Shown in pieces: positions 8,599 through 30,563 of a stretch of DNA of 64,000 bases. Each line of letters begins with the position of its first letter. The first letter of the stretch is position 1. This DNA is from Candidatus Portnoybacteria bacterium RIFCSPLOWO2_01_FULL_43_11. Its GTDB lineage: Bacteria; Patescibacteriota; Minisyncoccia; Portnoybacterales; UBA2143. Location: contig MHNE01000008.1 in assembly GCA_001819605.1 (NCBI GenBank), positions 13,054 through 77,053 on the forward strand, in the 5' to 3' direction. The notes below the pieces were generated by a model. The model searched no databases. It was not told the origin of the DNA and worked only from the letters and a program-made list of their open reading frames with translations. A program made the translations under genes and the position numbers.

Positions 8599-9510
8599 AT
8601 GTCAAGTGGAAAACCATTTTTAATTGTTATCTTAGGACCAACCGCTTCCGGTAAATCAGCTCTGGCCATTAAATTAGCTGGCCGATTTAATGGTGAAATT
8701 ATTTCTGCGGACTCAAGACAAATTTATAAAGAAATGGATATTGGAACCGCTAAATCATTAGGGTCCGACCCTCGCGAGGGTCAGACCCTAAACTTAATTG
8801 ATATAGTCAGGCCTGATCAAGAATTTACTCTGGCTCAATATAAAAAATTAGCTATTAAAACTATCAATGATATTCACAAGCGAGGTAAATTGCCTTTTTT
8901 GGTCGGCGGCACCGGGTTATACATCTGGGCTGTTGTTGACAATCTAAAAATCCCTAAAGTTAAACCCCAGCCGGAATTAAGGGAAAAAATAGAAAAAGAA
9001 ATAAAACAAAAAGGACTAAAAAAAGTATATCAAAAACTCTTAAAATTAGACCCGGGAGCAAAACATTTTATAGAGCCGGATAATCCGCGAAGAATCATCA
9101 GAGCATTAGAGGTTTGTCTTATTACAAAAAAGCCGTTTTCCAAACAAAGAAAAAAAGGCCGAGCTCTTTTTAATGTATTGCAAATCGGCCTTAAGCCGGC
9201 CAAAAATATTTTTGATAAAAAAATAGACCGGCGAGTGGATAAAATGATCCATGCCGGTCTTATAGACGAAGTAAAAAATTTAGCCAAAAAATATAGTTTT
9301 AATCTGCCTTCAATGAGCGGCATTGGCTATCAAGAAATCGGCCGGTATTTAAGAAATGAAATTGACTTAGAAAAAGCAAAAGAACTAATAAGGCTTCATA
9401 CCCGTCAATACGCCAAGCGCCAGATAAGCTGGTTTAAGCGCGACAAAAGAATCCACTGGATAAAGAATTATCAAGAAGCGGAAAAAATAATAAAAGAATT
9501 TTTAGGATAA
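8599..9510 (+). CDS. miaA: tRNA dimethylallyltransferase
   Basis: P-loop GPTASGKS and DSRQIYKEMDIGTAK motifs. Confidence 0.9.
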   Translation: MSSGKPFLIVILGPTASGKSALAIKLAGRFNGEIISADSRQIYKEMDIGTAKSLGSDPREGQTLNLIDIVRPDQEFTLAQYKKLAIKTINDIHKRGKLPFLVGGTGLYIWAVVDNLKIPKVKPQPELREKIEKEIKQKGLKKVYQKLLKLDPGAKHFIEPDNPRRIIRALEVCLITKKPFSKQRKKGRALFNVLQIGLKPAKNIFDKKIDRRVDKMIHAGLIDEVKNLAKKYSFNLPSMSGIGYQEIGRYLRNEIDLEKAKELIRLHTRQYAKRQISWFKRDKRIHWIKNYQEAEKIIKEFLG

Positions 9511-10959
9511 AAAATCTTTTAAAATTTTACTCACAATTTGCGGATTAGCCTTGCCTTTACTTTCCCGCATTACTTGGCCGACCAAGAATTGTAAAGCGTT
9601 TTCTTTGCCCGCTCTATAATCTTTTACTGATTGTTCATTGTTTTTTATAACTTGTTCAACTATTTTTGTCAATTCATCCTCACTGCTCACCTGTTTAAGC
9701 CCTTTATCTTCAATAATATGAGTCGGGTCAGCGCCGGTTAAAAACATTTCTTTTAAAACAAGCTGGCCAGCGGAGCTGGAGATCTCTCCTTTTTCAATCA
9801 AAACAATAAATTCAGAAAAATTCTCGGCTGTAATTTTTTCCGGCAAACTATAATCAATAATTTTTAAAACGTCGGCAATCCGGGGAATTTCAGTTAATAA
9901 ATAATTAGCGGTTAATTTATATAATTTTTGAAGAGAAAGTTTTTCCTTAGCTTCCTCTGTCTGATTAAATTCAGAGCAAACCCCCTCAAAATAATCGGCT
10001 GATTTTTTTTGATTAACTAAAATCTCAATGTCTTTTTCCGGCAGTTGATATTCCTTTTTAAATCTTTCCCGGCGAGCTTGCGGCAACTCCAAAATAAGAT
10101 TTAAGATTTTAGATTTAAGATTAAAGATTTTGAGCGGCGGCAAGTCCGGCTCCGGAAAATAACGGTAATCTTCCGCTTCTTCTTTAGTTCTTTGAGAAAA
10201 AGTTTTTTGCTTATTATCGTCCCAGCCGCGGGTTTCCTGAATTATTTTCTCGCCGGATTCCAATAAATCCGCTTGTCTTTTGATTTCGTATTCTATGGCC
10301 CGCTCCACTGACCTAAATGAATTAAGGTTTTTAACTTCTACTTTCGTGCCGAGTTTTTTACCCGAGTCCTTAAGCGATATATTCGCTTCCACTCGCATCT
10401 GCCCCTTTTCCATATCAGCGTCAGAAACCCCTAAATATCGTAAAATCAACTGAAGTTCTTGGCTAAATTGCCGCGCTTCTTGAGCCGTTGTAATATCCGG
10501 TTCCGTTACCAATTCCATTAAAGGCACGCCGGCCCGATTAAAATCAACCAAGGAATAATCAGCGCCTTTTGAGTGGATTAATTTTCCGGTGTCTTCTTCT
10601 AAATGAATCCGCGTAATCTTGATTTTTCGGCCGTTTATTTCTAAAAAACCATTCACTGATAATGGCTTATCGTATTGAGAAATTTGATAGCCCTTGGGCA
10701 AATCCGGATAAAAATAATTTTTGCGGTCAAACTTGGAGAATTCCGGAATTTCGCAATTTAGAGCCAAAGCGGTTTTTAAAACATATTCAACTGCTTTTTG
10801 GTTAATAACGGGCAAACTTCCGGGCTGACCAGTACAAATCGGGCAAATATAAATATTCGGCTCTTGAGCCGTTGGGTTATTCGGGCAATCGCAAAACATT
10901 TTGCTCTCTGTTTTTAATTCCGCGTGAATCTCAAGACCGATAGTTGGCTGATATTTCAT
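9502..10959 (-). CDS. gatB: Asp-tRNA(Asn)/Glu-tRNA(Gln) amidotransferase subunit B
   Basis: MKYQPTIGLEIHAEL N-terminus and a GatB/YqeY C-terminus; the ORF start is trimmed to the conserved M. Confidence 0.9.
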   Translation of the reverse strand: MKYQPTIGLEIHAELKTESKMFCDCPNNPTAQEPNIYICPICTGQPGSLPVINQKAVEYVLKTALALNCEIPEFSKFDRKNYFYPDLPKGYQISQYDKPLSVNGFLEINGRKIKITRIHLEEDTGKLIHSKGADYSLVDFNRAGVPLMELVTEPDITTAQEARQFSQELQLILRYLGVSDADMEKGQMRVEANISLKDSGKKLGTKVEVKNLNSFRSVERAIEYEIKRQADLLESGEKIIQETRGWDDNKQKTFSQRTKEEAEDYRYFPEPDLPPLKIFNLKSKILNLILELPQARRERFKKEYQLPEKDIEILVNQKKSADYFEGVCSEFNQTEEAKEKLSLQKLYKLTANYLLTEIPRIADVLKIIDYSLPEKITAENFSEFIVLIEKGEISSSAGQLVLKEMFLTGADPTHIIEDKGLKQVSSEDELTKIVEQVIKNNEQSVKDYRAGKENALQFLVGQVMRESKGKANPQIVSKILKDFLS

Positions 10960-11033
10960 AATTTTTTTCTTAATACAAAAAAGGCTTTCTAAGTTCAAGT
11001 TTATTTTAAACCAGAAAGCCCTTTGGGTCAATT

Positions 11034-23819: not shown

Positions 23820-23892
23820 CGCGGGGTGGAGCAATTGGAAGCTCGCTGGGCCCATAACCCAGAGGTTGCCGGTTCGAGTCCGGCCCCCGCAA
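23820..23892 (+). tRNA. tRNA-Met(CAU), initiator-like
   Basis: Cloverleaf with anticodon loop CCCATAA, three consecutive G:C pairs in the anticodon stem, a C1:A72 mismatch, and T-loop GGTTCGAGTCC. No CCA encoded. Confidence 0.8.
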
Positions 23893-23914
23893 CATAAATT
23901 TTTCGCTTTACTAC

Positions 23915-23991
23915 GCCGGGGTAGCTCAACTGGTTAGAGCGTCTGACTCATAAGCAGAAGGTTGTGGGTTCGAGCCCCACCCCCGGTACCA
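23915..23991 (+). tRNA. tRNA-Met(CAU), elongator (or Ile2/lysidine type)
   Basis: GCCGGGGTAGCTCAACTGGTTAGAGC..CTCATAA..GGGTTCGAGCCCCAC..ACCA with an encoded CCA. Confidence 0.8.
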
Positions 23992-23992
23992 T

Positions 23993-24068
23993 GGAGCCGT
24001 AGCGTAGCCCGGTTTAACGCATCTGCTTGTCACGCAGAAGATCGTGGGTTCAAATCCCATCGGCTCCG
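23993..24068 (+). tRNA. tRNA-Asp(GUC)
   Basis: GGAGCCGTAGCGTAGCCCGG..anticodon loop TTGTCAC..GGGTTCAAATCCCATCGGCTCCG. Confidence 0.8.
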
Positions 24069-24235
24069 CCTTTGCCCGCCATAGCTGGCTTCGGCGGACG
24101 CAGTCCGCCAGAAGAACGCGACGGCGGGATTCGCCCGCCATAGCTCCGATAACACCGGAGCGAAGACGACCCGATTTCTATGTTTGAGCCATAAAAACCA
24201 GTATTTAAAGTGCTGGTTTTTTGATTTTAAAAATG
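24069..24235 (+). repeat. GC-rich tRNA-like remnant region with a 13-nt direct repeat (GCCCGCCATAGCT x2), hairpins, and a terminal terminator-like hairpin
   Basis: Direct repeats at 24073-24085 and 24131-24143. T-arm-like GGCGGGATTCGCCCGCC. CCAGTA..TGCTGG followed by TTTTTT. Confidence 0.45.
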
Positions 24236-24253
24236 ATATACTAAAGATAGATT

Positions 24254-24481
24254 ATGGCAAAACCATACTACAAAAAACCTAAATTTGAACTCTATTTAGC
24301 CGACTCTCTTGAGCTTTTAAAAAAGTTTAAGGACAATTCAGTGGATATGATTTTTGCTGATCCTCCCTATTTCCTTTCAAGCGGCACTTTCACCTGTCAA
24401 AATGGCAGAATGGTCAGCGTTAAAAAAGGAGACTGGGATATGAGCAATGGGATAAAAAAAGATTTTGATCTCCACTTTTGA
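24254..24481 (+). pseudogene. truncated N-terminal fragment (75 aa) of a beta-class DNA N6-adenine/N4-cytosine methyltransferase (CcrM/HinfI-like)
   Basis: SVDMIFADPPY motif IV followed by GDWD, closely matching the CcrM N-terminus. The ORF terminates without motif I (FxGxG). Confidence 0.7.
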
Positions 24482-25221
24482 ATGATATGAAGCAACACGA
24501 AGCAGTAATAAAAGTAATGAAACAAAATGGTGGATTTGCGACACTTGGGTATCTAAACCAAGAAGTTTTGAAGGTACCCGATGTTGAGTGGAAAACAAAA
24601 ACACCTTTTGCGAGTATTCGCCGTATTGTTCAAGACGAGCGATTTTTCTTTAAAATTAAGCCAGGACTGTGGGCGTTATTGTCGCACAAAAATAAGTTGC
24701 CGCAAGACATACTGCCGACCGATATGATGCCTAAGCAGGAGCAGGAGCTTTTCAATCATAGTTATTATCAAGGTTTGCTCGTTGAAGTCGGGAAATTGAA
24801 GCGGTATGAAACTTTTGTACCAAATCAAGATAAGAACAAGCGATTCTTAGGAAAGACGCTTGGAGAAATAAGCTCGCAAACGGATTTTTACCAATTTGGC
24901 TACGACCACATTGTACGAAAGGCGAAAACTATTGACGTTTGCTGGTTCAATGTCCGAAAAATGCCAAGCGTGCTTTTTGAGGTTGAACACTCAACGGATA
25001 TCCAAAATTCACTTCTAAAATTTGTGGAATTACAGGACTTCAACACCAACTTTTTTATAGTTGCAGACAAGGCGAGAAAAGCAGAATATACAGGAAAACT
25101 GGCACTCAACGCTTTTGACCCAATCAAAGAGCGTGTGCAGTTTATAGATTACGATAAATTATCCAAATGGCATACAAAAACTTTTGAGATTGCCAGTGTG
25201 GAAAATAGTCTAATTTTTTAA
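24478..25221 (+). CDS. HARE-HTH domain protein with a C-terminal putative PD-(D/E)xK-like nuclease domain (restriction-endonuclease-like)
   Basis: N-terminus GGFATLGYLNQEVL...TPFASIRRIVQDERFFFKIKPGLWAL fits the HARE-HTH pattern. C-terminus TIDVCWF...VLFEVEHS is a candidate nuclease core. Confidence 0.5.
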   Translation: MNDMKQHEAVIKVMKQNGGFATLGYLNQEVLKVPDVEWKTKTPFASIRRIVQDERFFFKIKPGLWALLSHKNKLPQDILPTDMMPKQEQELFNHSYYQGLLVEVGKLKRYETFVPNQDKNKRFLGKTLGEISSQTDFYQFGYDHIVRKAKTIDVCWFNVRKMPSVLFEVEHSTDIQNSLLKFVELQDFNTNFFIVADKARKAEYTGKLALNAFDPIKERVQFIDYDKLSKWHTKTFEIASVENSLIF

Positions 25222-25222
25222 T

Positions 25223-25766
25223 ATGGAAATTACCATTAGCCCGTTTTTCGCAAAACTTATTTTACGACTTAATCCGTTTCGTCGCGCTTTTGTGATGTGC
25301 AAAGGATACAGCGATGACTACGAGAATTTTACCGAACTTGTGTGGGAAGATGACAAAGATTTGGATTTTTACGACCGAGAGACCTACCCCAAATTTCAGC
25401 TATGGTTGCTTTAACCATTCATTTTTTGAAAGTCATTGCTGGAACAAATTAAAATCAATGATCTTTTGCGCGGTTATGTGGCACGGAAAAAATTCCAAAA
25501 AGGCAGAACTATTAGAAGTTGAAAGTTTAGATTTTGCCGAAGATGATCAGCTAATAAATGAAATCAAAGTAGACTATGATCTTATTAGAAAAAAATTAAT
25601 TAAGCATGGTTTTGAAAGCTTAACGGGCAAAGACGGAAAATGGATTCAGACCAGAACAAAAGGGACAGGTGGGATAAATCCACGAACGGGCAAACGCCGT
25701 CCGATTACCCGCGCGTTTTACGCAAGAACAAAATTAGTAAAAAAGATTTTTGAAATGGGAAGATAA
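25223..25766 (+). pseudogene. disrupted gene (two overlapping frames); the second frame carries a Vsr/DUF559-like FSYGCFNH...HC motif
   Basis: ORFs 25223-25414 and 25314-25766 overlap in different frames; the NFSYGCFNHSFFESHC motif resembles the Vsr FxxGCFWHxHxC. Confidence 0.35.
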
Positions 25767-25830
25767 ATCGTTCTAAAACAAAAAGGTCGGTATTAAATTT
25801 ATAAATTTGGTATAATTCTTAATTATTGAG

Positions 25831-26064
25831 ATGAAAAAATATAAAGTCAGTTTAGCATTAAAAATTCCAGCTAATTTTGAAATTGAAATTAATACCAGCA
25901 CAAAGAAAAAAGCGTTGGAAAAGGCGTTAGAAAAATATCACAACGGAAAATTTAATGAGAAAGATATAACGGATCCTGATTGGGGTAACATAGAATTAGA
26001 CATAAACGAAAATAGCAATATAGATGATATTGGCAATGGTATTTTTATTGAAGAGATAAAATAA
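25831..26064 (+). CDS. small acidic hypothetical protein
   Basis: 77-aa ORF in the accessory islet; no recognisable motif. Confidence 0.35.
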   Translation: MKKYKVSLALKIPANFEIEINTSTKKKALEKALEKYHNGKFNEKDITDPDWGNIELDINENSNIDDIGNGIFIEEIK

Positions 26065-26132
26065 ATTTTCAAAAACACTGCTCGTATCAAAAAAGCCCTT
26101 TTGGGGCTTTTTATCTTTCAGGCCATTAATCT

Positions 26133-26678
26133 TCAAAGCGCCATTAAATCTTCAAGGGCTCTTTGATAAATTTTAACGGCGTTTTCAGCGTCTTGACGGG
26201 TGAGGCGGAAATCCGGGTCATGAACAATATTATTCCTGATTTTATGGGCCTGCCAAATCGCGTCAATGTTGGCGATTTGAGCTGAAGTGATTTGCTTTAG
26301 TCTCTCGCCCATATTGTCTCCTTTGTAGCCGGATTTTTTTAGAATATTGTCAAGGATTTTATCCGCTTCAATAATGGCTAATTTTAAATTACTTTCCTCC
26401 CCGCTCTCCAATTTCTTCAAAACCGCGCTCCATTCCCTACTCATTCTTCTTTTTGGCCGGCTTGACGCGCCAACGCTTTTAGTTACTATCTGAACCGAAT
26501 TTTTTATGTCAACCCTTAACTTAATAATCAAAAAAACCAAAGCCGCGAAAAGCATAAAAGAAAGCATTAAAGAAAAACTTTTAATAAATAAAAATGTCCT
26601 CCCCCAATCTGAAGAAGTAAAATGGATTGAAAAATAATCGTAAAGATTAAGAAGTAAAGTCCTCATAAGCTTGAGCAA
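26133..26678 (-). CDS. membrane-anchored protein with a C-terminal domain resembling the DUF4145 HEPN family (Rx4HD motif)
   Basis: N-terminal hydrophobic helix. C-terminus AIIEADKILDNIL...IWQAHKIRNNIVHDPD carries the R-x4-H HEPN signature, recognised by consensus-from-memory resemblance to DUF4145. Confidence 0.55.
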   Translation of the reverse strand: MLKLMRTLLLNLYDYFSIHFTSSDWGRTFLFIKSFSLMLSFMLFAALVFLIIKLRVDIKNSVQIVTKSVGASSRPKRRMSREWSAVLKKLESGEESNLKLAIIEADKILDNILKKSGYKGDNMGERLKQITSAQIANIDAIWQAHKIRNNIVHDPDFRLTRQDAENAVKIYQRALEDLMAL

Positions 26679-28074
26679 TGTCTAAAATTTTCTCTTCGTC
26701 AAAATGTTTGCCGATAATCTGAAGACCGATTGGCAACTGACCGACTTTCCCGCAAGGGATAGAAACAGCCGGCGCTCCGGCTAAATTTATCGGCACTGTA
26801 AAAATATCTGATAAATACATTTGCAACGGGTCGTCTATTTTTTCTCCGATTTTAAAAGCCGGTGTTGGCGAAACCGGCGTCATTATAACATCCACTTTTT
26901 TAAAGGCCTCGTCAAAGTCTTTTTTAATTAAAGTCCGCATTTTTTGAGCTTTTAAATAATACGCTTCATAATAGCCGGCTGACAAAGCGTAAGCGCCAAG
27001 CATTATTCTTCGCTGCGGCTCGCTTCCAAAACCATGCTGGCGCGTCTTTAAATAAACTTCTAAAAGATTATCCCCTTTTTCTGAAAGTCCGTATTTTATC
27101 CCGTCGTAGCGGGCTAAATTTGCCGAGACTTCAGCCGGCATAATAATATAGTAAGCGGCCAGAGCGTATTCGGTATGAGGCAAACTCACCTCTATAATTT
27201 CAGCGCCCATTTTTTCAAATTTAGAAATTGCTTTTTTGATTACTTCTTCTACTTCCGGGTCTAAACCCTTAATAAAATATTCTTTGGGCAGACCAATTTT
27301 TAAATCTTGTAACTTGAAACTTGAAACTTGAAACTTGTTTTTGAATTCTACGCTTGTTGAATCCAGCCCATCTTTTCCGCTAATTGCTTCTAAAACAATT
27401 TTTGCGTCTTTGGCGGTTTTGGTTATTGGCCCAATCTGGTCCAAAGACGAAGCCATGGCCATGAGTCCATATCGCGAAACCCGGCCGTAAGTTGGTTTTA
27501 AACCGACCACGCCGCAAAAACTGGCCGGCTGGCGAATTGAGCCGCCGGTGTCAGAACCAAGAGCGTAAATACACTCATTGGCGGCTACTGCCGCGGCAGA
27601 ACCGCCGGAGCTTCCGCCCGGCACCCTTTCCAAATCATGAGGATTTCTGGTAATTCCAAAAGCGGAATTTTCCGTAGAAGATCCCATGGCAAATTCATCC
27701 AAATTTGTTTTCCCGACTATCACGGCTCCGGCTTTTTTAAATTTTTTAATTACCGTAGCGTCATAAGGCGCGATATGATTTTCTAAAATTTTTGAAGCGG
27801 CCGTGCATTTTACGTCTTCAACTAAAATAACATCTTTAACAGCTACCGGGATTCCTTCTAAAACTCCTATTTCTTCTCTTTTTTTAATTTTCTCATCAAC
27901 TTTTTTCGCTTGCTCTAAAGCCAAGTCTTCAGTAACGGTTAAATATGCCCCAATATCTTTGTCTCGTTTTTTAATCTGCTCTAAAACAGCCTCAGTCAAC
28001 TCTCCTGCGGAAAAATCTTTATTTTTGAGACCCTTATGCGCTTGTTGAATAGTTAGTTGGTTTAATGACATCAA
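26647..28074 (-). CDS. gatA: Glu-tRNA(Gln) amidotransferase subunit A
   Basis: Amidase signature GGSSGGSAAAVA; 475 aa. Confidence 0.95.
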   Translation of the reverse strand: MMSLNQLTIQQAHKGLKNKDFSAGELTEAVLEQIKKRDKDIGAYLTVTEDLALEQAKKVDEKIKKREEIGVLEGIPVAVKDVILVEDVKCTAASKILENHIAPYDATVIKKFKKAGAVIVGKTNLDEFAMGSSTENSAFGITRNPHDLERVPGGSSGGSAAAVAANECIYALGSDTGGSIRQPASFCGVVGLKPTYGRVSRYGLMAMASSLDQIGPITKTAKDAKIVLEAISGKDGLDSTSVEFKNKFQVSSFKLQDLKIGLPKEYFIKGLDPEVEEVIKKAISKFEKMGAEIIEVSLPHTEYALAAYYIIMPAEVSANLARYDGIKYGLSEKGDNLLEVYLKTRQHGFGSEPQRRIMLGAYALSAGYYEAYYLKAQKMRTLIKKDFDEAFKKVDVIMTPVSPTPAFKIGEKIDDPLQMYLSDIFTVPINLAGAPAVSIPCGKVGQLPIGLQIIGKHFDEEKILDIAQAYEDFTS

Positions 28075-28097: not shown

Positions 28098-28388
28098 TTA
28101 TAGAATCGCTTTCACCTTCACATATCCATCCCTTCTCTTTGGCGCTAATTTTAATATCTTTTCCCGCTGTTCTCTGTTTGTATCCCCTGCCCTGTCTTCC
28201 CTCATCACATTTTGAAGTCCGGTAATATGGGCGGTTGGTTCAACTCCCTTTGTATCCACTTCATTCAATTTTTCCACAAAACCCAAAATAGAAGAAAGTT
28301 CTTTTCCGAATTTCTCCTTTTCTTTTTCCGTTATTCCCAGCCGCGCCAACTTCGCCACATGTTCAACCTGTTGTTTGGAAAGTTTCAT
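28098..28388 (-). CDS. gatC: Glu-tRNA(Gln) amidotransferase subunit C
   Basis: 96 aa; VEHVAKLARLGITEKE..FVEKL motif. Confidence 0.85.
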   Translation of the reverse strand: MKLSKQQVEHVAKLARLGITEKEKEKFGKELSSILGFVEKLNEVDTKGVEPTAHITGLQNVMREDRAGDTNREQREKILKLAPKRRDGYVKVKAIL

Positions 28389-28490
28389 TTTAACTGATTT
28401 TATATTAACAATTTTAAATTAAAGAAGCAACCTAAAAGCCAGCCAAACGGCTGGCGCTTTTTTTATGTTTCGGGTTTCAGGAATTATCTT

Positions 28491-30563
28491 TTAGGTTTTC
28501 ATAATTTTCAAAAACTCTTTCTCGTCAATAATTTTTACTCCCAACTTCTTCGCTTTATCAAATTTTCCGCCCGGCTCTTTACCCACAACAACGAAATCAG
28601 TTTCTTTAGAAACTGAACCGGAAATATCGCCACCTAAGCCCCTTATTTTTTCTTTGGCTTCATCGCGGGTCATTGATTCTAATTCGCCGGTCAAGACAAA
28701 AATTTTATCTTTAAACTTTAAACTTAAAACCTGAAACTTGGGTAATTGAATCCGGAGATTAGCTTTGTCTAATTTTTCTAAAAGTTTGAGGTTGTGTCTA
28801 TTATGGAAATAATCATAAATGCTTTGACCAACCACCGGCCCAATATCTTGGATATTCTGTAAATTTTCTAAAGAAAATTTATTGTAAAATTTAATCAAAT
28901 CATTTATGTTTCGGATTTCGGATTTTGTATTTCGGATTTCCTGCGAAAACATGATGGCTGTTTCTTCACCAACATGTCTAATCCCTAAAGCGTAAATAAA
29001 TTTAGCCAAAGGGATTTTTTTACTTTTTTCAATCGCTTCAACCAAATTCTTGGCCGATTTTTCCGCGAATCTTTCTAGGGGCGCTAAATCTCCTTCTTTT
29101 AAAGCGAAAATATCAGCCGAGTCATTCACCAAACCCTCATCCATTAATTGATTAATAATTTGGGGGCCTAAGCCGACAATATCAAAACCTTTTTTGGAAA
29201 TAAAATGTTCAATTTGTTCTTTTTGCCGGGCTCCGCACTGATTATTGGAACAGCGATGAATTGCCTCGCCGGCCGGTTTAATAACTTTGGCGCCGCAAAC
29301 CGGACATTTTTCAGGCATCTGAAATTTCTTTTCATGGCCGGTTCTCATTTTCTTTAAAACTTTAACTATGTCCGGAATCACATCCCCGGCCCGCTGGATA
29401 ATCACGGTATCGCCTATCCGAACATCCAGCCGCTTAATCTCGTCTTCATTGTGAAGCGTGGCCCTGGTAATGGTCGTGCCGCCCAGCCGCACCGGTTTTA
29501 AAAAAGCCACCGGAGTCAAGGCGCCGGTCCGGCCCACCTGAACAATAATATTTTCCACAATAGTGGTCGCTTCTTTTCCCGGAAATTTAAAAGCGATTGC
29601 TCCTCTTGGCGCTTTGCCAACCACGCCTAATTTTTCAAAAATATTATTGTTATTTACGCTCACCACTATCCCGTCTATTTGGTACGGCAGTTTTTCCCTT
29701 TCTCTTTTTACTTTTTCATAAAAATCAATAACTTCTTTTAAGTTTTTAGAATATTGACCATTGTCGGTCTTAAATCCCAAACATTCGGCAATCTGATGCT
29801 CTTCCTTATGAGTCTTTTGGCCTAAATCCGTGATAATGTCGTAAGCCAAGAAATTTAATTGGCGTGAGCCGGCTATTTTAGAGTCAAGCTGTCTGATGCT
29901 TCCGGCCGCGGTATTTCTTGGGTTGGCGTAAAGCGGCTCGCCTTTTTTCTCCCTTTCCTGATTAATTTTTTCAAAGGATTTAGCGGTCATATAAACTTCG
30001 CCGCGCGCTTCAATCTCGCCTTTATGAATTAAGGCCTGAACTTTCTCTGTTATTTCTTGAGAAGCTAATTTCCGGTGAATTTCTATTCTTAAAGGAATAG
30101 AAGAAATAGTTTTCAAGTTTTGACTGACATCTTCGCCGATTTTTCCGTCGCCGCGCGTTGAACCTTCGCTTAAAATTCCATTTTTATAAACCAAACTAAT
30201 GGCAAAGCCGTCAACTTTCAATTCCGCGAAATAATCTATTTTTTTATCAGGCGCTAATTTCTGAATTCTCTCCCGCCAAGATTCTAATTCTTCCGGGCTA
30301 AAAGCGTCTTCCAAAGAAAGCATCGGAGTTTTGTGTCTGACTTTTTTAAATTTATCCAAGGGCTTACCACCCACCCGCTGGGTCGGCGAATCAGGAGTGA
30401 TTAATTCCGGAAATTGTTTTTCTATTTGTTCTAATTCATGCTTTAAAGAATCAAGAGCCGCGTCGCTGATTTCCGGCTTATCTAAAACATGATAAAGATA
30501 ACGCTGGCGATCAATCTCCTTCCTTAATTGATCAATCCTTTTTCGAGCTTCTGGTTTAGTCAT
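28491..30563 (-). CDS. ligA: NAD-dependent DNA ligase
   Basis: KxDG adenylation motif (ELKVDGFAISL), Zn-finger CPVCGA, HhH and C-terminal BRCT. Confidence 0.95.
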   Translation of the reverse strand: MTKPEARKRIDQLRKEIDRQRYLYHVLDKPEISDAALDSLKHELEQIEKQFPELITPDSPTQRVGGKPLDKFKKVRHKTPMLSLEDAFSPEELESWRERIQKLAPDKKIDYFAELKVDGFAISLVYKNGILSEGSTRGDGKIGEDVSQNLKTISSIPLRIEIHRKLASQEITEKVQALIHKGEIEARGEVYMTAKSFEKINQEREKKGEPLYANPRNTAAGSIRQLDSKIAGSRQLNFLAYDIITDLGQKTHKEEHQIAECLGFKTDNGQYSKNLKEVIDFYEKVKREREKLPYQIDGIVVSVNNNNIFEKLGVVGKAPRGAIAFKFPGKEATTIVENIIVQVGRTGALTPVAFLKPVRLGGTTITRATLHNEDEIKRLDVRIGDTVIIQRAGDVIPDIVKVLKKMRTGHEKKFQMPEKCPVCGAKVIKPAGEAIHRCSNNQCGARQKEQIEHFISKKGFDIVGLGPQIINQLMDEGLVNDSADIFALKEGDLAPLERFAEKSAKNLVEAIEKSKKIPLAKFIYALGIRHVGEETAIMFSQEIRNTKSEIRNINDLIKFYNKFSLENLQNIQDIGPVVGQSIYDYFHNRHNLKLLEKLDKANLRIQLPKFQVLSLKFKDKIFVLTGELESMTRDEAKEKIRGLGGDISGSVSKETDFVVVGKEPGGKFDKAKKLGVKIIDEKEFLKIMKT

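Follow-up and report, generated by a model that had tools for sequence, protein, structure and literature searches.

The gene located at 26133..26666 on the minus strand of the window, by which is meant the whole stretch of 64,000 nucleotides that was analysed, is best explained as a housekeeping gene rather than as a mobile abortive-infection effector, and as a lineage-wide core gene of the Parcubacteria-type Patescibacteria. It encodes a protein with an N-terminal transmembrane helix and a C-terminal HEPN-like domain, and it lies directly downstream of gatA, which codes for the amidase subunit of the tRNA-dependent amidotransferase. The role tentatively assigned to the protein, at somewhat less than an even chance, is that of a membrane-anchored, cytoplasm-facing housekeeping HEPN protein that would be coupled with the amidotransferase, would bind RNA, and would cut it where its motif is intact. 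The domain and the general architecture are already known. The family, its status as a core gene, and its linkage to gatA are new, and no description of it was found in the literature on HEPN domains in connection with Patescibacteria, CPR, Parcubacteria, or gatA.

The open reading frame, as called mechanically, extends over 26133..26678 on the minus strand and corresponds to 181 residues beginning at a TTG codon at 26678. Both this frame and the C-terminal sequence quoted in the first-pass annotation are present in the minus-strand translation, and the residue numbers given here follow the 181-residue frame. The start is probably the ATG at 26666, which leads to a coding sequence of 177 residues (26133..26666, stop codon included), because the homologues begin with the residues MRT and these match the ATG. 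That the gene is real is far beyond chance. The gatA reading frame closes with E-D-F-T-S-stop at 26647, where the HEPN gene has already begun, and the two genes share 20 nt, counted from the ATG at 26666: ATGAGGACTTTACTTCTTAA. An overlap of about 30 nt with gatA had been assigned to the 3' end of the gene. The overlap does exist (32 nt from the TTG and 20 nt from the ATG), but it is the 5' end of the HEPN gene that runs into the 3' end of gatA. Given that start and stop overlap, translational coupling to gatA is probable. Approximately 20 nt past the stop codon of the HEPN gene there is a hairpin (26090..26112, minus strand) with a 9-bp stem, a GC core, and a U-run, which is the probable terminator of the gatC-gatA-HEPN unit. 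It is the only element retained in the centroid fold, and the overall z-score is weak (-1.0). The hairpin was not listed by a scan for consensus terminators, probably because its T-run is absorbed into the stem.

Upstream of the HEPN gene and on the same strand are gatA (26647..28074, minus strand; Pfam Amidase, 4.7e-160) and gatC (28098..28388, minus strand; Pfam GatC, 1.3e-25), the latter being the first gene of the unit. A promoter-like site at 28511..28483, within the end of ligA, and a GC-rich bidirectional hairpin at 28438..28455, between ligA and gatC, are matches to consensus only; together they suggest that gatC-gatA-HEPN can be a transcription unit of its own, of which the HEPN gene would be the last member. 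In the classical gatCAB operon, gatB sits after gatA. That operon is split in the window, and the HEPN gene holds the slot behind gatA. The third amidotransferase subunit is encoded in full length at 9502..11031 (minus strand), approximately 15 kb away from gatC-gatA. It was located by tblastn with a sequence of Bacillus subtilis GatB as the query, and the match (E 8e-134, with 47% identity across residues 1-469) is of a quality that validates itself. On account of this full-length gatB, the notion was dismissed that the HEPN protein stands in for an absent GatB or for the tail domain of GatB.

The association with gatA is strict. Eighty-six loci were in hand, two of which carry no upstream DNA, and in 83 of the remaining 84 gatA lies directly upstream of the HEPN gene on the same strand (the 83 include three pairs of contigs that are nearly identical). 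Three of three additional divergent members are likewise positioned directly downstream of gatA, and gatC precedes gatA in most loci. The lone exception is L053 (5..1069 on a 1.6-kb contig), where the 3' end of gatB lies upstream across a gap of 28 nt, pointing to the gene order gatCAB-X in the genome concerned, X being the HEPN gene. In three divergent relatives (38-52% identity) the gene follows directly after gatC-gatA on the same strand, with ligA, trpS, or mreB before gatC and with a CopG gene with LAGLIDADG, a Mur ligase gene, or an integrase gene after the HEPN gene. Same-strand adjacency to gat genes was thus observed across divergent genomes. The distance from the gatA stop codon to the HEPN start, measured from the first in-frame ATG at 76 loci, ranges from -35 to +344 nt; the genes overlap at 31 of these loci, and at 64 of them the start lies within 27 nt. 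At one locus (L088, 1769..4570) a foreign gene encoding a 116-residue 23S_rRNA_IVP/bAvd protein splits gatC from gatA, and gatA and the HEPN gene are still adjacent. On the downstream side, no gene family recurs across 71 loci, the largest cluster being pheS in 11 of the 71 at a distance of more than 1 kb, and no antitoxin or sensor partner recurs beside the HEPN gene. An MNT gene does not appear as its neighbor in any of the gene tables. No second copy of the HEPN gene occurs within any fetched locus.

A word-indexed search yielded 154 relatives of the HEPN protein, none with a Pfam domain, and the organism names attached to these matches are all Patescibacteria (Wolfebacteria and Paceibacterota, for example) or unclassified bacterium. 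An exhaustive HMM search, covering 1.84 billion representatives at 50% identity, identified 3,391 clusters (50% identity) with E<=1e-3, 2,734 with E<=1e-10, and 735 with E<=1e-30. Among the best 150 of the 3,391 representatives, almost all are 145-211 residues in length, mostly 165-200, and one is a fragment of 120 residues. In a collection containing one genome per species, at least 549 stretches encode a relative. The loci taken for study were the best-scoring 80 of these at least 549, a sample in which the most divergent members are under-represented. All of the titled records among the 80 are from Patescibacteria or an unclassified bacterium, and the lineages include Portnoy-, Wolfe-, Lipton-, Harrison-, Nealson-, Terry-, Azam-, and Sungbacteria, Spechtbacterales, and Minisyncoccia, the closest of the 80 being a Portnoybacteria sequence with 73% identity. 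Two relatives, P0027 and P0112, carry conflicting source labels, namely "DNA polymerase III delta prime subunit" versus "YutE (UPF0331/DUF86)". The polymerase label, attached to one relative, is almost certainly wrong.

The polypeptide chain contains one hydrophobic segment, a strongly hydrophobic transmembrane helix formed by residues ∼30-52 (26523..26591, minus strand), as had been claimed at first pass. Exactly one such segment was observed in 246 of 247 full-length members, with a mean Kyte-Doolittle value of 2.8 over 19 residues. In these same 247 proteins the N-terminal tail of ∼27 residues is variable and slightly acidic, with a net charge of -0.7, and the 25 residues past the transmembrane helix have a net charge of +2.8. 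The lysines and arginines past the helix outnumber those of the whole tail in 94% of the members. On the basis of this charge bias and the positive-inside rule, the protein is predicted to adopt an N-out/C-in topology, in which the tail points outward and the C-terminal domain is cytoplasmic. The distance between the transmembrane helix and the motif described below is constant at 92 ± 2.4 residues.

The HEPN domain has been defined by four helices, an Rx4-6H motif that ends helix 3, a polar residue (N/D/H) following the arginine, and a conserved acidic residue in helix 2, typically within Ex3[KR] and close to the motif (PMC3710099). Both the superfamily layout and an Rx4-6H motif with a polar residue, Asn, after the arginine are found in the protein under study. 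The C-terminal domain, which is predicted to be cytoplasmic, extends from residue 76 to residue 181 (26136..26453, minus strand) and displays a HEPN-like, four-helix architecture. The helices in the AF2 model are delineated by residues 76-92, 95-115, 138-153, and 161-177, with an insert at 116-137. Both models are confident: that of the whole protein has a pLDDT of 90.9, and that of the domain alone has a pLDDT of 93.4 and a pTM of 0.87. The motif itself, HKIRNNIVH (H145-K-I-R148-N149-N-I-V-H153; 26220..26246, minus strand), is of the Rx4H type with Asn following Arg 148 and an additional histidine upstream. In the AF2 models helix 3 closes at its C terminus with R148-N149-x3-H153.

An unfiltered alignment of 41 sequences revealed eight invariant residues, Trp 83, Ala 101, Gly 120, Leu 127, His 145, Arg 148, Asn 149, and His 153, and yields the signature H-x2-R-N-x3-H. 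Over 334 members Arg 148 is conserved in 96%, Asn 149 in 93%, His 153 in 86%, and His 145 in 95%. An acidic patch in helix 2, I-I-E104-A105-D106 (IIEAD; 26361..26375, minus strand), is retained to a similar extent in the 334 (Glu 104 96%, Ala 105 97%, and Asp 106 94%). It would be the counterpart of the acidic residue conserved in helix 2 of HEPN domains, but it does not show the precise Ex3[KR] spacing.

A Foldseek search of the PDB with the whole model gave 1wty, 2hsb, 1ufb, 5yep, and 1wol as the best matches (probabilities up to 1.00, E 0.07-0.4). With the domain model, 11 of the 12 top matches belong to the HEPN superfamily, with TM scores up to 0.66; those to HEPN proteins include 1wty, 5yep, 1ufb, 7bxo, 7ae6, 6m6u, 6m6w, 2hsb, and MtlR (6kcr). 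The best match of a domain-only profile to the PDB is the HEPN toxin 8xdj, with RN..H aligned to RN..H (E 0.22, non-significant), and the whole-protein profile returned only spurious transmembrane or low-complexity matches. No single fold or profile match to the PDB is significant (E 0.07-1.3).

The HEPN protein itself matches neither PF13643 nor any other HEPN family in Pfam, even at E<=10, so that the profile search proposed for the assignment to DUF4145 came out negative, and scans against Pfam, NCBIfam, PADLOC, and PHROG gave nothing meaningful. Its weak matches to DUF4559 and DUF922 were rejected as noise. When 41 relatives were compared with Pfam, the weak matches included HEPN_Cthe2314 for 17 of them, Swt1 for six, DUF4145 for four (counted at E<=1), Ymh for three, and RiboL-PSP for two, and these five HEPN-clan families are among the commonest weak Pfam matches across the set. 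A single relative, P0092, scores above the gathering cut-off of PF13643, with 25.0 bits versus 23.1 bits over positions 8-88 of the 88-position profile; the window protein and most relatives lie below that threshold. One relative bears the JGI label "YutE/DUF86", which is a HEPN family. A tblastn search of plasmids with the HEPN domain of a relative, seeking annotated DUF4145 proteins, retrieved nothing. The support for a HEPN assignment is transitive, given that it is the relatives, and not the window protein, that match HEPN profiles. The description of the C-terminus as resembling DUF4145 stands insofar as motif, fold, and the matches of the relatives are HEPN-like and closest to the DUF4145 type; as judged from the sequences and the predicted models, the region is a divergent DUF4145-like HEPN domain but not a formal member of PF13643.

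The catalytic histidine is not maintained throughout the family. Among the best 150 of the 3,391 representatives the R-N-H triad is intact in 95, His 153 is replaced in 41 (∼27%; by Tyr in 17 and by Asn, Arg, Lys, Ala, Glu, or Gln in the rest), and Arg 148 is replaced in 14. Better kept in the same 150 are Trp 83 (146), Gly 120 (148), and Glu 104-Ala 105-Asp 106 (139-146), or 93-99%. In a set of 342 sequences His 153 is missing from 46, of which 43 keep Trp 83 and Glu 104, and 41 keep Asp 106. A few of the histidine-less variants lack the arginine as well, and the E-A-D patch and Trp 83 are mostly retained. Three loci encoding histidine-less variants (L074, L076, and L081) and the contig P0113 still place the gene behind gatA; cleavage is therefore not a universally conserved function of the family. 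Judged from these alignments, binding rather than cleavage may be the conserved role, and a binding role, whether toward RNA or toward GatA, accords better with the pattern of conservation than catalysis does. Catalysis by the window protein itself is plausible on the strength of its motif.

These same observations give weight to the alternative that ranks next to the preferred reading, doubtful as it is on balance, in which the protein is a non-catalytic partner of GatA. Its HEPN-like domain would tether or regulate GatCA(B), or hold tRNA at the membrane, and the Rx4H motif would not be the center of an RNase but a relic or a site at which a ligand binds. In keeping with such a role, gatA and the HEPN gene form the tightest pair, often overlapping and kept even where gatC splits off; the loss of His 153 accompanied by retention of Trp 83, Gly 120, and the acidic patch is what would be expected, as is the unchanged synteny of the histidine-less variants; and inactive HEPN domains that are employed for binding are known (PMC3710099). 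It is harder to reconcile with the high conservation of Arg 148, Asn 149, and His 145 and with the full motif, which is intact in the window genome and in 97% of the closer relatives of the window protein.

In the preferred reading, that of an RNA-binding housekeeping protein coupled with the amidotransferase, the protein spans the membrane once, with its short tail outside and its divergent DUF4145-like HEPN domain in the cytoplasm. [quoted passage not shown] If it resembles other HEPN proteins, it would be dimeric and would bind RNA, its most plausible substrates being tRNAs. Where H-x2-R-N-x3-H is intact, RNA could be cut by the metal-independent HEPN mechanism, again by analogy. The functional link to GatCAB is an inference from position, and membership in the operon could be incidental.

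If it were incidental, the protein might serve as a general membrane-associated housekeeping endoribonuclease in the turnover or processing of mRNA, rRNA, or tRNA, as a functional analogue of membrane-anchored RNase Y or, in eukaryotes, of Ire1, with its position behind gatA a matter of expression only. An N-terminal transmembrane anchor joined to a nuclease-type domain that is cytoplasmic and whose motif is intact, a uniform architecture, and the status of a core gene would all be compatible with this, and RNA processing at the cytoplasmic face of the membrane has been proposed for other transmembrane HEPN proteins (PMC3710099). We consider it unlikely, however, since adjacency to gatA is strict down to ∼35% identity as the other neighbors change, for which convenience of expression alone is an inadequate account, and since the catalytic histidine is gone from about a quarter of the best-scoring representatives.

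A bolder proposal, and a distinctly unlikely one, is that the protein constitutes a fourth, hitherto unrecognized and membrane-anchoring component of the amidotransferase in Parcubacteria, which would dock GatCA(B) together with misacylated Glu-tRNAGln or Asp-tRNAAsn at the membrane. Members with an intact motif would in addition serve in quality control, as RNases that cleave these tRNAs upon failure of amidation. If true, this would mean that a HEPN nuclease has been domesticated for the fidelity of core translation.

The first-pass annotation had placed the gene next to a defense islet. There is indeed a remnant of a type II restriction-modification system nearby (24254..25221, plus strand), but it is truncated, lies on the opposite strand, and occupies a variable slot. 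Its methyltransferase fragment (24254..24481) is limited to the N-terminal 75 residues of a type II enzyme, including the DPPY motif (PADLOC MTase_II, 7e-21), and it is overlapped by 4 nt by an open reading frame of 247 residues with a weak match to REase_II (1e-5). The latter ends at 25221, ∼900 nt beyond the 3' end of the HEPN gene and on the far side of the hairpin at 26090..26112, and the open reading frames that follow it at 25223..26064 gave no matches. In relatives the slot contains other cargo, including CopG with LAGLIDADG, an integrase, and a Mur ligase. A cluster of tRNA-Met, tRNA-Met, and tRNA-Asp genes (23820..24070, plus strand) borders this variable slot between the HEPN gene and pheS, and may have served as an insertion hotspot for the remnant. 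The HEPN gene does not belong to this islet.

That the protein is instead an abortive-infection or toxin effector of the adjacent islet, an RNase of the HEPN type that is tethered to the membrane and would kill the cell upon phage infection, is very improbable in spite of the restriction-modification remnant and of the many HEPN and DUF4145 proteins that are defense or toxin components (PMC3710099), for the PADLOC and PHROG scans are without a match, the remnant is separated from the gene by strand, hairpin, and variability, no antitoxin- or sensor-like neighbor recurs, and the gene occurs as a single copy per fetched locus at a fixed core-operon position, with at least 549 species-level matches. 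The defense reading, as put forward at first pass, is largely refuted by synteny. The case carries a warning that an Rx4H protein in the vicinity of a restriction-modification remnant is not automatically a defense gene.

Of the known HEPN families, DUF4145 (PF13643, HEPN clan) is the nearest, and is similar in its four-helix layout, in the "G-x-x-L..." insert, and in the x-R-N-x3-H sequence that ends helix 3. In DUF4145, too, the motif is only "mostly conserved" (PMC3710099). Typical DUF4145 proteins are fused to, or encoded beside, restriction, helicase, or Abi modules, whereas the members of the gatA-linked family are stand-alone and anchored by a transmembrane helix, and all of the named or titled records examined are from Patescibacteria.

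[quoted passage not shown] The gatA-linked family resembles these groups in its single transmembrane helix and its predicted cytoplasmic HEPN domain. It differs from them in that it has neither a globular N-terminal domain nor a Zn ribbon, and the WP signature is present within the first 70 residues of only seven of 334 members. None of the 2013 groups had been linked to gatCA or to Patescibacteria.

The HepT toxins of the MNT-HEPN systems (DUF86; 5yep, 6m6u, 7ae6, and 8xdj) are among the best structural matches, together with 1wty and 1ufb, and a HepT toxin provides the best PDB profile match of the gatA-linked family. Some HepT toxins cut tRNA. Unlike these toxins, the gatA-linked protein is membrane-anchored and resides in a core-gene context, and none of its loci carries a gene for an MNT antitoxin in the vicinity. 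With respect to its anchor, the protein can be compared with RNase Y of the Firmicutes, a core-gene product in which a single N-terminal transmembrane anchor precedes a cytoplasmic RNase domain. The likeness is one of layout and by analogy only, for the catalytic domains are unrelated (HD/KH versus HEPN).

Most HEPN domains on record belong to toxins, CRISPR effectors, and abortive-infection systems. The present family of approximately 3,400 clusters, for which there is no Pfam, NCBIfam, PADLOC, or PHROG model, is instead fixed in a core translation operon, and its host genomes are minimal ones in which nearly all retained genes are likely to be of importance. Should the link to GatCAB prove functional, the protein would represent an accessory subunit not known before or a step of tRNA-directed control in indirect Gln/Asn-tRNA synthesis, and it would provide a bacterial case of a conflict-system nuclease recruited to housekeeping. 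Eukaryotic examples of such recruitment are Las1, Swt1, and Ire1. Although eukaryotic, kinase-coupled or of other architectures, and related at the superfamily level only, the KEN domain of Ire1/RNase L and C6orf70 follow the same logic as that envisaged for the gatA-linked family, in which a HEPN nuclease is stationed at a membrane and serves in housekeeping or under stress (PMC3710099).
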